64,000 nt of DNA from Verrucomicrobiota bacterium (GCA_038748025.1 JBCDJI010000008.1:93249-157248); one strand, 5' to 3'; shown: positions 40,567-45,504, counted from the first letter of the stretch. The notes: generated from the letters alone by a model not told the origin. A program made the numbers and translations.

Positions 40567-41121
40567 ATGGATGATGGAACGATACAATTGAAGCGGGACT
40601 GCGATGCGATCCGCATTCCCAGTGGTGAAAAGATCTCCCTGAAGGAGGGGCAGGAAGTAGCGGTAACCCAGTCGCTGGGAGGATCCCATACCCTGATGAC
40701 CAGTATGGGTATGGCCCGCCTGGATGATAAGGACGCGGATGCCATTGGACTGGAGCCCGGAACCACTGGTGCGACTGAAAAGGACGAAGCCGCTGCGGAC
40801 AAGCCACTTTCGGAAGAAGAGCTGAAGCAGGAGGTCTGGGAGCGCTTGAAGACCGTGTTCGATCCGGAGATTCCGGTGAATATTGTCGATCTGGGGCTGG
40901 TCTATTCCATGGAGCTTGCCGAGGAAGGCAGGAAGGTGGAAGTGGATATGACCTTGACTGCACCGGGCTGCGGGATGGGACCGACCATTCAGGCAGATGC
41001 CAAAAGTAAAGTGGAAGCCATCCGGCAGGTGGAAGAAGCGGATGTGCGACTGGTCTGGGAGCCGGCCTGGAACCAGGATATGATTACCGAACACGGCAAG
41101 ATGAAGCTGGGCATGATTTAG
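40567..41121 (+). CDS. sufT: SufT (DUF59/MIP18 family with SufT-type N-domain)
   Basis: The N-terminus is AIRIPSGEKISLKEGQEVAVTQSLGGSHTL. The DUF59 core is VFDPEIPVNIVDLGLVY...MTLTAPGCGMGP...VRLVWEPAWN. Confidence 0.8.
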   Translation: MDDGTIQLKRDCDAIRIPSGEKISLKEGQEVAVTQSLGGSHTLMTSMGMARLDDKDADAIGLEPGTTGATEKDEAAADKPLSEEELKQEVWERLKTVFDPEIPVNIVDLGLVYSMELAEEGRKVEVDMTLTAPGCGMGPTIQADAKSKVEAIRQVEEADVRLVWEPAWNQDMITEHGKMKLGMI

Positions 41122-41513
41122 AGCACATGGTATTTATTCGGGCGCACCGAGTAGTGCGATGACAAGATGAATCCGCCCATGGCGGCTACCACCCCGCAGA
41201 GCGGGGCACGTTTCATCCTACGGTTTCCCGCTTAGGGTGAGCATCCCCGAATACTTTCGCACATACATTAACATAAGGTTGGAGACTGCTGGTGAAATGT
41301 AGGATGAGATTCCTCCGCCTCAGCGGATGATCTCGTCACGCCATAACGGTAGGATCCGTCCTGACGAGATCGTCCGCCTGCGCCAAGGCTTCGGCGGAAG
41401 AATCTCATCCTACACCCGGAAATGTCATCTGCTTATGTTAATGTATGTGCGAATACTTTCGGGTTTCTTGCCAGGCTTCATCCGTAATGGGCCAGATGAA
41501 TCACCAGGTGCTC
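41118..41513 (+). repeat. left ~400-bp inverted repeat (module A + MITE core copy 3 at 41259-41450 + module B)
   Basis: Its reverse complement aligns end to end with 45096-45504, roughly 85-90% identical by eye with a few indels. The core has perfect 19-20 bp TIRs and GAATACTTTC on both sides. Confidence 0.85.
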
Positions 41514-41798
41514 TTTCTGGAGCGTGCTCCGTATCTGCTGCGGTGGCTTTCAGCCTGGCAGCACACACTTTCGCAGTCCGAGCGACCGGCGGATTCCCGC
41601 TGATCTGCTGATTCCGCACCAGCAAATCGGCACAACAGTCGCCGGCAGATGGCAACTGCCGATCCTTCAGCAATGGTCTCTTGGAGCACCTGAAGTAGCG
41701 TCAGGACTGAGGTAGCCGGAGTCCATCCTGCCTTCCAGCGGTTCATCCAGCGGTTTTGGTTGCTTGCGGTCGGTAATCTGCCTGTACTTGGACTCGTC

Positions 41799-43457
41799 AT
41801 GCCTTTAACGGAGATAGATCTGCTGCAGGATTTGGGCTGGATGGTGATAACGGCGGCACTGTTTGCCTACCTGGGCCGGCTGTTGAAGATGCCATCGATC
41901 GTGTCCTACATTTTTGCGGGGATCGCTCTGGGGCCGGTGCTGGATCTGGTTGAGGTGGGCCAGTCACTGTATCTGATTTCGAAGCTGGGCATCGCACTGC
42001 TGCTGTTTCTGGTCGGCCTGGAATTGAGTTTCGACAAGATCCGGGATGTGGGGCGGGTGGCTGTGGTGGCCGGTCTGGGACAGGTGGTTTTTACGGCGTT
42101 AGGTGGGCTGCTGCTTTGTCTGGCTCTCGGCTTTAACTTCATGGCTTCCCTGTTTCTGGCAGTGGGGCTGACGTTCAGCAGTACGGTGGTAGTCGTCAAA
42201 CTGCTGGACCAGAAAGGCGATTTAAGCCGGCTCTACGGTCGGATTGCCGTGGGGATTTTCCTGGTACAGGATCTGGTGGTGATTGCCGTTCTGACGCTGC
42301 TTTCCGGTCTGGACAGGACGGATGGATGGTCGATTCTCGGGCTGGGCAGCGGTCTGGGTAAAGCTTTGGGCGGAATGCTGCTGCTGCTGGCAGTCGTGCT
42401 GCTGGCCTCCCGGTTCCTGCTGCCGCGACTTTTCGGGTGGGCTTCGCGCAGTCCGGATACCATTTTCATCTGGGCACTCTTCTGGTGTCTGCTGACCACC
42501 GGGCTGGCCGGTTTGCTGGGGCTCTCGCTGGAAGTGGGAGCATTTCTGGCCGGGGTGGCGCTGGCACAGTCGCGTTTCAGCGGCGACTTGCATCGCCGCC
42601 TGCACCCCTTGATGAGTTTTTTCGTCGCCATCTTTTTTGTCACGCTGGGAATCCGCACCGACCTCTCCGCTGCCGTGGATAACTGGCAGGCTTCGCTGAT
42701 CTTATCCTTGTTCGTGCTGGTCGGTAATCCGCTGATTTTTATGATCATTATCGTGCGCATGGGCTACAGCGAATGGACGGCATTCCGCACCAGTCTGACG
42801 GTTGCGCAGATCAGCGAGTTTTCCTTTATTTTCGCCACGATGGGACTGGCGGCAGGACTGGTGGATGAATCCGTGCTCTCGATAACCACGCTGGTAGGCA
42901 TCGTGACCATCGCGGTTTCGGCGTATATGATCATTTACACGGATCAGATTTACGCGGTCTGCCGCCGGGCCGGCGTGCTGAAGATTTTTCGGGCACGGGC
43001 GGAGCCGGAACCGGAAGCTTCGGATCAGCGGCGTGGTCACATGATTGTGGTCGGAATGAATGCCCTGGGACGCGAAATCGTGCGCAAACTGGTCCGGCGC
43101 GGAGAGCAGGTTCTTGCCGTGGATACGGATCCTGCCAAACTGGATCAGGTCGAAGGAGCGGAGACGTTTATCGGCAACGTGGAATATGAGAGCGTGCTGG
43201 AGGAGATCGGTTTGCCTGACTCGCGACTGGTGATTTCGGCGTTGCAGATTGAGGACTTCAACCAGCTGCTGGCCTACCGCTGCCGCAGTGCGGGAGTGCC
43301 GTGCGCGATTCATGCTTTTGACCCGTCGGTGATTCAGGACCTGGTGGATCTGGAGGTGCGTTACCTGCTGAGTCCTTCACTGGAAGGCGTCGTGATCCAG
43401 CACCAGTTGCTGCAGGAGCAGGGCCTGCTGGCAGAAATCGTGAAAGGATCCAAATGA
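41799..43457 (+). CDS. CPA2-family cation:proton antiporter with C-terminal RCK/TrkA-N domain (KefB/KefC-like), copy 1
   Basis: A polytopic Na_H_exchanger-type N-domain is present. The Rossmann-type motif is [28 protein letters not shown]. The start was refined to the ATG at 41799; the ORF track gives a TTG at 41760. Confidence 0.8.
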
Positions 43458-45040
43458 CCACCTTTGCGTTCCTGTTGTTTGCTGCAGCACTGGCATTCGG
43501 GCTCGGCAAGTGGCTGCGTCTGCCCGTGACGCCGATGCTGATCCTGGCAGGCGTAGGCCTCGGGCTGCTAGCGGATGGCGGAAGTGTGGTGCTGTCCAGT
43601 GACTTGCTGCAGGATCTGGTCCATATCGGTCTGGCGGTTTTGGTTTTTGCGGCCGGGGTGGAGCTGAGTCCGCGCCGGATGCGGGGGCGTGTGCGGCCGA
43701 TTGTCTGGGTGGCACTGACCCAGTTTCTGGCGCTGGGACTCTCGGGCTTTGTCGTCGCCTGGGCTTTGGGTTACGGGATGACAACCGCGTTTTACACCGG
43801 CTGCGCACTTTCTGCAAGTTCCACCCTGGTGGTGGTGCGGCACCTGCAGTCGCGGCAACAGATGTTTGAACCGTTCGGGCGACTGGTACTGGGAGTGCTG
43901 CTGCTGCAGGATTTGTTTATTATTCTGATTCTGGTCATTCTGCTGAGGCTTTCGGAAGGGCTGCAGTCGATCATGCTGGCGGTGGGCAGCACCGTGCTGC
44001 TGGCTGCTCTGGCGCTGGTCATTCACCGCTGGTGTGCCCCCTGGCTGACACGACATGTGCGACTGGAGGAGGAGGAACTGATGCTCGGAGCACTGGCCCT
44101 GCTGTTTGCGTTTTCCGGTCTGGCCTACCTGATTGAACTGCCCTTTCTGGTGGGTGCGTTTTTTGCCGGATTCAGTCTGTCGGCATTCCCCATGAACGGG
44201 CTGGTGCGTGGCATGCTGGGCTCACTGTCCGCCTTTTTCCTGGCATTGTTCTTTATCTGCATCGGGGCGTTTCTGACCTTGCCTTCCCTGACCATCATCG
44301 GGCACAGCTTCATCCTGATGGTCGTTCTCATTGTGGTAACAGTGGTGGTGGTTTCCGTGGTTGCGGAAGCAGTGGGGTATTCCACACGGGCGGCTGTTGA
44401 GTCCGGGATTCTCCTCTCACAGACCAGTGAGTTCTCGTTGCTGCTGGCCCTGGCCGGATTATCTACCGGACAGATCAGTGCGGAACTGTTCTCCATGATT
44501 GCTTTGATTACGGTCAGTACCATGACATTGACCCCGTTCCTTTCGCGGGAAAGTGTGGTCTGGTTTCTGATGCGGTTGCACCCCCGGTATCGCAAAGGGG
44601 AACGTCGGTGTGAAGTGATGAGCGGTCATGCCGTCCTGCTCGGCTACGGACGGGCAGGGGCACGGACCGTGAAACTGCTCAAACAGCACGGGCTGGATGT
44701 CGTGGTGATTGATGATGATGCCGGCGTGATCCGCAAACTGATTGAACAGAATATTCCCTGTATCCAGGGCGACGGGTCAGACCCGCACATGCTGGAGCAG
44801 GCTCACTGCCGTCAGGCACGTATGGTTCTTTCCTCGATGCGCCGCAGCCGTGACGCCCAGGCAGCCATTCACTACCTGCAAGCGACACCGGTTCAAATTT
44901 TTGTGCGCACCTTTGAACCTGCAGAGGCCGAGCAGGTGCGTGCTGCGGGAGGCGTTCCGGTAGAGACCGCAACTGCGGCGGCAGACTCTCTGATAGCCTG
45001 GCTGGAAGGCAATCTGCCGGCCCGCCCCCATCCGTCCTGA
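43454..45040 (+). CDS. CPA2-family cation:proton antiporter with RCK/TrkA-N domain, copy 2
   Basis: The 528-aa protein has the same architecture ([28 protein letters not shown]). Its start overlaps the stop of copy 1 by 4 nt. Confidence 0.8.
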
Positions 45041-45095
45041 ACGCAGTGTTAACAGGTTGGAACTGTAGCCGAGGTCGGTGACCTCGGAGTTCTAG

Positions 45096-45504
45096 CGCAC
45101 CTCGTGATTCATCTGGCCCATTACGGATGCAGCCTGGCAAAAACCCCGCAAGTATTCGCACATAGATTAACATAAGCAGATGACATTTCCGGATGTAGGA
45201 TGAGATTCTTGCGCCGAAGCCTTGGCGCAGGCAGACGATCTCGTCAGGACGGATCCTGCAGTTATGGCGTGACGAGATCATCCCGACACCCTGCGGGGTC
45301 GCGAGGAATCTCATCCTACATTTCACCAGCAGGCTCCAGCCTAATGTTAACTTGTATGCGAATTCATTCGGGGATGCTCACCCTTGCTACACGGGAAACT
45401 CTAGGATGAGACGTGCCCCGCTCTGCGGGGTGGTCGCCGCCATGGGCGGATTCATCTTGTCATCGCACCAATCGGTGCGCCCGAATCAATGCCATGTGTT
45501 CTAA
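45096..45504 (-). repeat. right ~400-bp inverted repeat (module B + MITE core copy 4 at 45158-45359 + module A)
   Basis: This is the inverted partner of 41118-41513. In the core, the CCGCTGAGGCGGAGG arm is replaced by the hairpin CCCGACACCCTGCGGGGTCGCGAGG, giving a 202-bp core. Confidence 0.85.

Follow-up and report, generated by a model that had tools for sequence, protein, structure and literature searches.

Repetitive extragenic palindromes (REPs) of the GTAG type are made up of a 5′ GTAG that stays unpaired and, behind it, an imperfect palindrome whose stem holds a mismatch (PMC3333891, PMC3733652). In Escherichia coli, the REP-associated tyrosine transposase (RAYT) needs both the GTAG and the stem mismatch for binding and cleavage; it cleaves single-stranded DNA at C↓T sites, at distances from the REP that reach beyond 400 nt, and is able to join such sites by recombination (PMC3333891). 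A survey from 2013 records GTAG REPs among Verrucomicrobia, where it calls Opitutus terrae "highly enriched"; in its description, REPs form head-to-head dimers, trimers, and clusters, REP dimers are also embedded within larger palindromes, gene 3′ ends and the spacers of convergent genes are favored locations, and some REPs furnish a TAG stop codon (PMC3733652). Two inverted REPs that fold into one long hairpin constitute a REPIN, a REP doublet forming a hairpin (Bertels & Rainey 2011, PMC3116915), and the bacterial interspersed mosaic elements (BIMEs) of E. coli arrange REPs in alternating orientation with conserved linkers, the block being repeated at several intergenic sites. Here, a pair of inverted repeat arms is described in a stretch of 64,000 nucleotides from a Verrucomicrobiota metagenome-assembled genome (MAG; GCA_038748025.1 JBCDJI010000008.1:93249-157248), the whole of which is called the window. 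The arms bracket an operon of two CPA2 antiporter genes, kefB1 and kefB2, in the slot between sufT and cysH. They belong to a known kind, the GTAG-REP/REPIN/BIME-like cluster. With a probability of roughly 0.7, they are two copies of a selfish palindromic cluster of the REP/REPIN type that landed beside an operon already present—and hence delimit neither a captured nor an invertible cassette, which removes a tempting reading of the locus.

The left arm (arm L) matches the reverse complement of the right arm (arm R) from end to end, at 397 versus 411 nt. BLASTN aligns 41118-41514 with 45504-45094 at 87.8% identity over 411 columns (E=2e-148); the 14 gap columns comprise a 10-nt insertion in the apex of one arm R REP and a 4-nt indel. 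The repeat search returns three ungapped, collinear inverted blocks: 41325-41514/45094-45283 (190 nt, 94%), 41118-41235/45387-45504 (118 nt, 91%), and 41234-41315/45303-45384 (82 nt, 88%). The original prediction, made by eye, had put the arms at ~400 bp and 85–90% identity, and its coordinates hold to within 1–2 nt. Its division of each arm into a module A (~130 nt), a core (~200 nt), and a module B (53 nt) is borne out by the alignment. Arm L begins at 41118, one base ahead of the sufT stop TAG (41119-41121), and arm R extends to 45504, with the stop codon of cysH (45561-45563) 56 nt away, in agreement with the predicted start at the sufT stop and end ~55 bp before that of cysH. As also proposed, the arms enclose two coupled CPA2 genes, overlapping by ATGA, and a leader, 284 nt long as compared with the ~290 bp given before. 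The boundaries are equally sharp in both copies, and the flanks are unrelated. Order, orientation, and junctions of the region are reproduced in a second assembly, MAG L001 (GCA_039025795.1), and in the 100%-identical Logan unitigs L025, L002, and L039.

REP units were located by a scan for two half-sites, GTAGGATGA...ATCTCGTCA, and compared with shuffles. The window holds 11 units versus 0.08 expected, all of them outside the genes identified there, and the 14-mer GTAGGATGAGATTC occurs 12 times versus 0.54 expected. A unit has the form GTAGGATGAGATTC–variable hairpin–(G)ATCTCGTCA. Folded as single-stranded DNA, all 11 tested canonical or variant units leave the 5′ GTAG unpaired and continue into a stem, in the shape ....((((stem)))). 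This stem, GATGAGAT/ATCTCGTC, is conserved and features one T:G (non-Watson-Crick) position. Since folds, GTAG, and stem mismatch match the published definition (PMC3333891, PMC3733652), the arms can be described as mosaics of GTAG-tagged REPs. Each arm contains three REP units in the order −,+,−, with linkers that are 88–94% identical. The likeness to described GTAG REPs and REPtrons (PMC3733652, PMC3333891, PMC2817692) extends to the strong intergenic over-representation, the location at 3′ ends and in convergent spacers, the supply of TAG stops, and the occurrence as singletons, head-to-head dimers, and trimers or clusters. Unlike in these systems, the stem is specific to the lineage and the apex is hypervariable. 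Sequence and length (10–33 nt) of the apical hairpin differ in almost every unit, and it is always self-complementary—as in the window units at 41299-41338, 41362-41413, and 13502-13533 and in those at 7980-8012, 8733-8776, and 9500-9538 of the related locus L020. Such palindromic apices would have to be regenerated or selected for by something. With its very long doublets, hypervariable self-complementary apices, and an element nested within an element, the family is unusual.

The core is a head-to-head REP doublet with the GTAG ends outermost and a spacer of 23 nt, and this arrangement is identical in all four copies: one in each arm and two solo copies, near 5 kb and 35 kb of the window. 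The whole core folds as a single hairpin, as judged by the folds of arm L and arm R. The solo cores are each 94–95% identical to the core of arm L, and the cores as a set are star-like, with 93–96% pairwise identity; arm L and arm R share 94.7% in the core and 91.3% in A+B, a difference that is not significant. A core always lies inside a CCCCG...CGGGG shell (4964-5167, 35193-35408, 41242-41467, and 45140-45378). The cores of arm R and at 35 kb lack a direct repeat; they have one shell sequence in common, and the core orientation relative to this shell is opposite. Like REPINs (Bertels & Rainey 2011, PMC3116915), the core consists of two inverted REPs in one long hairpin and exists in several copies of 93–96% identity; unlike them, it carries extra outer inverted repeats (CACATACATTAACATAAGG) and sits inside the CCCCG...CGGGG hairpin, which in the arms is itself part of a REP-bearing unit. 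The original prediction had called the core a MITE (a miniature transposable element with inverted repeats). This stands insofar as the core is noncoding, multicopy, nested, and derived from a mobile element; more precisely, it is a REPIN-type doublet of GTAG REPs, linked to a RAYT in a sister lineage. Of the traits of classical DDE-type MITEs, terminal inverted repeats are found in the core and in A+B of arm L, and the arms are inverted around a gene block; in contrast to MITEs, there is no cognate DDE transposase, target duplication is not consistent, direct repeats being present at only two of four cores, and RAYT-type REPs lie inside.

A doublet that is present in one genome and absent from a near-identical one is seen in arm L. 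From 40485 to 44820, MAG L001 (99.6% identical) differs from the window solely by 202 nt missing from arm L, arm R being identical. The missing DNA equals the 190-nt core (CACATAC...GTATGTG) plus one of the two 12-nt copies of CGAATACTTTCG, so that CCCCGAATACTTTCGGG remains. The core is assembled at three other sites in L001—arm R and both solo sites—which makes an assembler artifact at arm L unlikely. Hence, the doublet and not the single REP behaves as the unit that is gained or lost. The indel would represent either a very recent insertion of the core with a 12-bp duplication or a precise excision between direct repeats. The core at 5 kb also has a direct repeat, of 10 nt and different in sequence, again inside CCCG...CGGGG, which favors target duplication at small hairpins; since the cores of arm R and at 35 kb have none, the evidence on gain versus loss is mixed. 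Excision of a whole REPIN is documented in Pseudomonas fluorescens SBW25 (PMC3116915). A clean presence/absence of a doublet at ~99.6% identity provides, outside Proteobacteria, rare natural evidence that a REPIN was recently gained or lost, and arm L of L001 offers an exact empty site to set against the filled one.

The link to a RAYT comes from L020 (GCA_039027415.1), a sister-lineage locus whose SufT is 91% identical. Between cysNC and a gene with a CHAP domain, it carries a gene for a protein of 148 aa (8295-8741) that scores 82.9 bits on the NCBIfam model REP_Tyr_transpos, the curated cutoff being 80. The same REP unit is found directly upstream of this gene and at its stop codon, with further units nearby (7980-8860), and REP motif matches in L020 number 7 versus 0.12 expected. 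As judged by this layout, with a REP on both sides of the RAYT gene as in described systems, the locus is a complete, textbook REPtron. A GTAG-REP/REPIN family is thus present in an uncultured marine-type Verrucomicrobiota lineage, and in a sister lineage its REP lies on both sides of a RAYT gene.

Comparison of the sufT–cysH slot (window 41122-45560, L020 1782-4222, L021 10553-18172) bears on the age of the arms. L021 (GCA_964351865.1) features the overlapping kefB1–kefB2 pair convergent on cysH, with a spacer of 33 bp and no repeat; KefB1 is 88% and KefB2 81% identical to the window proteins, and SufT 81% by global alignment or 79% by BLASTP. Between sufT and the pair, L021 has three genes, which encode a 692-aa multihaem/TPR protein, a second nifU product, and a class-V aminotransferase. 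In L026 (SufT 86%), a gene of the 692-aa type likewise follows sufT and the same three extra genes precede the pair. More distant Opitutales (L030, L032 [Coraliomargarita sinensis], and L040) have the pair, or kefB2 alone, convergent on carA. No module A or B is present at the L020, L021, and L026 loci or at the other relatives' loci compared. The arms hence appear as late, lineage-specific insertions into pre-existing 3′ spacers and not as agents of capture, given that the pair is already convergent on cysH without repeats in L021. The antiporter identities to L021 (81–88%) resemble those of the flanking genes (79–92%), which fits vertical descent. Arm R has a spacer on either side, 53 nt toward kefB2 and 56 nt toward the outside; the former contains a hairpin that is probably the operon's own 3′ hairpin, which fits insertion into an existing spacer. 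The terminal codons of sufT are ATT-TAG in the window and ATC-TGA or ATC-TAA in three relatives, with the length of SufT kept. Module A supplies the TAG stop codon, the repeat starting exactly at T-TAG, and this too fits a late insertion.

The favored reading gives each arm as one composite of GTAG-tagged REPs, ~400 nt long, that encodes nothing. Module A contributes a single REP hairpin, the core is a head-to-head doublet—an unusually long REPIN of 190–218 nt—nested at the small CCCCG...CGGGG hairpin, and module B closes the unit by forming, together with A, a terminal inverted repeat that is imperfect. In arm L, the score of this terminal repeat is reached in 0 of 2000 shuffles. Arm L as single-stranded DNA is predicted to form one long hairpin closed by the A and B ends (z=-10.7); the ends also pair in both full arms and in an empty A+B unit without core (z=-3.7). 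Mobilization presumably would occur in trans and on single-stranded DNA by a RAYT, an HUH/Y1 enzyme, which would recognize the unpaired GTAG and the imperfect stem and cut at C↓T sites, possibly hundreds of nucleotides off, so that a REP cluster is copied together with its flanks. The distant C↓T cleavage by the E. coli enzyme (PMC3333891) makes this a plausible route, and copying of the whole A-core-B unit to a second site by a RAYT is the most likely origin of the two arms. Both landing sites are typical for REPs: the 3′ end of sufT, where the element gives the TAG stop, and the convergent spacer of kefB2 and cysH. The antiporter operon stood next to cysH before the repeats and would be bracketed by accident of position. 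The inverted orientation would be one of two equally likely outcomes; on either side, it places module A beside the outer gene's 3′ end.

Several observations weigh against this reading. A tblastn search with the L020 RAYT finds no RAYT gene in the 64-kb window, and the window spacer orthologous to the RAYT site of L020 (49446-49540) carries only degenerate REPs. The enzyme gene would thus have been either lost in the lineage of the window or gained in L020—loss of a REPtron by deletion is described in E. coli (PMC3733652)—and a trans-acting RAYT elsewhere in the source genome is only assumed. The core is two to three times longer than classical REPINs (190–218 versus about 70–110 nt), and direct repeats of 10–12 nt are found at two of four cores (12 nt in arm L and 10 nt at 5 kb, of different sequences), which is not seen in REPINs and is unexpected for HUH transposition. 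The terminal inverted repeat of A and B is weak or degraded in arm R, where its score is reached in 168 of 2000 shuffles. The core divergence between the arms (5.3%) is not below that to unlinked copies and is below the A+B divergence (8.7%), so that each arm may have acquired its core independently. Finally, modules A and B are found nowhere else, which leaves A-core-B unproven as a dispersed mobile unit, as a purely local duplication would look alike. Outside the two arms, neither module recurs in the 64-kb window even at relaxed thresholds. A 20-mer of module A matches GTDB species representatives 6 times and JGI metagenomes 11 times, all of these being chance matches of 20–30 nt in unrelated taxa, the source species evidently lying outside those collections; core and B have 0 matches among viral contigs. 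In comparison with BIMEs, the block is much larger (about 400 nt), is known in two copies only, and has its own terminal inverted repeat.

The inverted arms enclose exactly two genes and their leader, and the content of the slot differs among relatives, as would be expected if two MITE copies had mobilized the DNA between them like a composite transposon and delivered the antiporter pair into the sufT–cysH interval. This capture, put forward in the original prediction, is largely refuted by L021, in which the same pair stands beside cysH, convergent on it across 33 bp and behind three additional genes, without any repeat. The genes between the arms are ancestral at this locus, so that no composite transposition took place: the antiporters diverge like the flanking genes and the cassette has no compositional anomaly that would point to a foreign origin. 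Immediately beyond the arms, the left 8 nt (GGCATGAT) and the right 8 nt (GCGGAGCG) have nothing in common, and so the outer direct repeats that the prediction proposed to look for are missing. The 3′ hairpin of kefB2 with its 53-nt spacer on the inner side of arm R and the 56-nt spacer on the outer side further disagree with capture. No transposase is encoded in or next to the arms, nor is a recombinase, as had been stated before; only spurious open reading frames (ORFs) of 94 and 215 aa cross the arms. Capture is thus extremely improbable. The arms might instead act as a recombination substrate, inverting the operon by homologous or site-specific exchange or serving as a breakpoint, with altered expression or turnover of the cassette as the outcome. 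Repeats of ~400 nt in inverted orientation are in principle able to recombine, the structure of the slot varies among relatives with a different antiporter on the opposite strand in L020, one arm is structurally polymorphic, and a published report describes REPs as hot spots for plasticity of the genome (PMC1525189). Yet the orientation is the same in the window and in L001, the two assemblies spanning the locus, and the unitig junctions agree, this evidence coming from assemblies only. The arms have diverged by ~12%, and the longest tracts identical between them measure only 33, 30, 27, and 26 nt. Identical tracts as short as these are near the lower limit for RecA-dependent exchange, which mismatch repair suppresses further; homologous inversion is hence possible but inefficient. 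Among the suf and cys genes on either side, no recombinase gene is seen, the arms measure 400 nt and flank whole genes, unlike the short inverted repeats that flank a promoter in an invertible segment, and the L020 antiporter is a distant paralogue and not an inverted copy, in a slot without REP. An invertible segment is accordingly very unlikely, and the weaker claim that the arms could promote inversion or deletion, possible as such, is matched by no structural polymorphism apart from the loss or gain of the core in one arm.

Modules A and B occur only at the two sites in all data searched, and these sites are just 3.6 kb apart, with arm L in the place where L021 and L026 have their three extra genes. 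One arm could therefore be an ancestral REP cluster and the other the product of a single event of replication or repair, for example a template switch, which may be connected with the loss of these genes and would involve no composite transposition; in Pseudomonas, REPIN clusters that co-duplicate flanking DNA are described (PMC3116915). The equally sharp boundaries and the terminal inverted repeat are not expected of a random template switch, however, and L020 is also devoid of the three genes but has no arm, so that the deletion need not involve arm L. The intergenic DNA of the relatives is too diverged for breakpoint mapping, and we consider such a local inverted duplication unlikely. Somewhat better, if still improbable, is the prospect that the arms are domesticated 3′-end elements, whose hairpins terminate or insulate transcription and stabilize the mRNAs of sufT, cysH, and kefB2 between close convergent units. 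Both arms lie at gene 3′ ends with module A facing the outer gene, their predicted secondary structure is very strong, and roles of REPs in mRNA decay and termination have been proposed (PMC3733652; bioRxiv 10.64898/2026.03.23.713779). Relatives manage with spacers of 33–67 bp and no REP, though, module A offers only a weak terminator-like hairpin without a proper T-run, and the loss of half of arm L in the L001 MAG is evidently tolerated. Any effect of the arms on transcript 3′ ends is one that we infer. An extension of the favored reading would make A-REPIN-B a second-order mobile unit, that is, a REPIN nested in the apical hairpin of a REP-bearing element and copied whole by a RAYT cutting at distant C↓T sites; such nested clusters would mark and help drive the turnover of the sufT–cysH slot, where related Verrucomicrobiota carry alternative cation/proton antiporter cassettes, either the pair of CPA2 genes or one CPA2 of 773 aa encoded on the opposite strand. 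This extension is decidedly speculative and ranks, in our judgment, below a local duplication and above an invertible segment.

Table 1. Positions of the arms, their REP units, related repeats, and neighboring genes in the window
Feature	Position	Strand	Remarks
Arm L, module A + nested core + module B, 397 nt	41118-41514	+	Repeat search, alignment; single-stranded DNA fold
Arm R, inverted copy of the composite, 411 nt	45094-45504	-	B ~45094-45146, core 45159-45358, A ~45371-45504; repeat search, alignment, fold
Module A of arm L	41118-41247	+	Carries the sufT stop (T-TAG at 41118-41121); 91.5% identical to module A of arm R
Direct repeat CGAATACTTTCG, 12 nt, left copy	41248-41259	+	At core boundary; single copy kept in L001
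Core of arm L, 190-nt REPIN-like element	41260-41449	+	Missing at this site in L001
Direct repeat CGAATACTTTCG, 12 nt, right copy	41450-41461	+	
Module B of arm L	41462-41514	+	Outer end repeats that of A, imperfectly and in inverted orientation (AGAGCACMTGGT...); alignment and shuffles
REP unit in module A of arm L	41160-41221	-	Two-hairpin apex; scan; free GTAG + stem + apical hairpins, z=-3.5
REP unit, left half of doublet, arm L	41299-41338	+	Scan, fold
REP unit, right half of doublet, arm L	41362-41413	-	Scan, fold
REP unit of arm R core	45195-45246	+	Scan
REP unit of arm R core, apex 10 nt longer	45270-45319	-	Scan, fold
REP unit in module A of arm R	45401-45462	+	GTAG degraded to CTAG; scan
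Solo core between 10-nt direct repeats CGCCAGTTCG	4968-5163	+	
Solo core bracketed by REP-like half-sites	35197-35404	-	GCAGAATAAGAGTC / TTCTCGTCA
Complete singleton REP outside the four core sites	13502-13533	-	
Degenerate REP pair, cysNC–CHAP spacer	49446-49540	+	Site of the RAYT gene in L020; motif search, fold
Degenerate GTAG-motif match outside the four core sites	201-214	-	
Degenerate GTAG-motif match outside the four core sites	53418-53431	+	
sufT, left flanking gene	40567-41121	+	Stop inside the repeat
Operon leader, 284 nt	41515-41798	+	Unique sequence; no Rfam family; no DNA homology to the L021 leader
kefB1, CPA2 antiporter, 552 aa	41799-43457	+	Na_H_Exchanger + TrkA_N; 88% identical to the L021 orthologue
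kefB2, CPA2 antiporter, 528 aa	43454-45040	+	Na_H_Exchanger + TrkA_N; ATGA overlap with kefB1; 81% identical to the L021 orthologue
Perfect 8-bp hairpin CCGAGGTC-GGT-GACCTCGG	45069-45087	+	Between the kefB2 stop and arm R; read from sequence
cysH, right flanking gene	45561-46337	-	Convergent with kefB2

A candidate for a fourth REP across the A/B junction (tTAGGgTGAGCATC...TTTCTTGCCA) matches at 10 of 14 positions of the 5′ half, yet it does not fold with the outer stem and is not counted. At E<=1, a search of 40000-46500 against Rfam yields a single chance lncRNA match and no known structured RNA in arms or leader. A promoter and terminator scan of the arms finds nothing above shuffle expectation save the weak terminator-like hairpin in A. 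The ORFs through the arms (94 aa, 41327-41611, plus strand; 215 aa, 44679-45326, minus strand) are almost certainly spurious; as a protein query, the former, which crosses core and B, has no homologue among 5.8 billion proteins. The repeats explain such ORFs as well as the breaks of short-read assemblies at these points. Unitigs built from short reads of this lineage are interrupted at the arms or within them: L025 ends at 41144, L002 at 41429 and 45086, and L038/L039 at 45441. One break falls at the 33-nt tract common to both arms and another in the terminal repeat of the core. For the one that lies 27 nt inside module A, the identity of arm L and arm R gives no explanation, and it might mean a further A-like copy or a strain variant. 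The context of the cysH stop, ATTTAGAGCAT (45552-45572), lies 56 nt before the start of arm R and resembles the arm starts ATTTAGAGCAC / GCTTAGAACAC (cf. 41113-41127); this likeness may be coincidence or the relic of an older junction.

The closest named homologues of the host, a Verrucomicrobiota MAG, are in Opitutales. In L001, the leader is annotated with a minus-strand gene of 81 aa (1285-1530). Leader and 3′ spacer of the window have no homology to those of L021, the intergenic DNA being too diverged to map breakpoints of insertion or deletion. An apparent insertion after sufT in L028 relative to L026 was rejected as a gene-call difference on identical DNA. KefB1 and KefB2 are only 28% identical to each other, yet the adjacent pair is kept across Opitutales (41799-45040 in the window, 14892-18139 in L021, 6137-9596 in L030, and 6319-9605 in L032), with the ATGA overlap in the window and L021, which suggests an obligate two-subunit CPA2 system; most relatives have it facing carA convergently instead of cysH. 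The slot of L020 contains a single CPA2 gene of 773 aa (Na_H_Exchanger+TrkA_C) on the other strand, codirectional with cysH, between spacers of 67 and 52 bp; the three extra genes of L021 and L026 are missing there too. This protein is a distant paralogue, 29% identical over 139 aa, and two unrelated CPA2 solutions in one slot suggest functional replacement in situ. In the suf genes, the window is nearer to L020, and CysNC is about equally similar in the window, L020, and L021. CysD of L020 (5094-6008) is an outlier, with 79–80% identity to the proteins of the window (46435-47352) and L021 (19054-19971), which share 92% with each other, a pattern that speaks for local recombination or replacement in L020's cys region.

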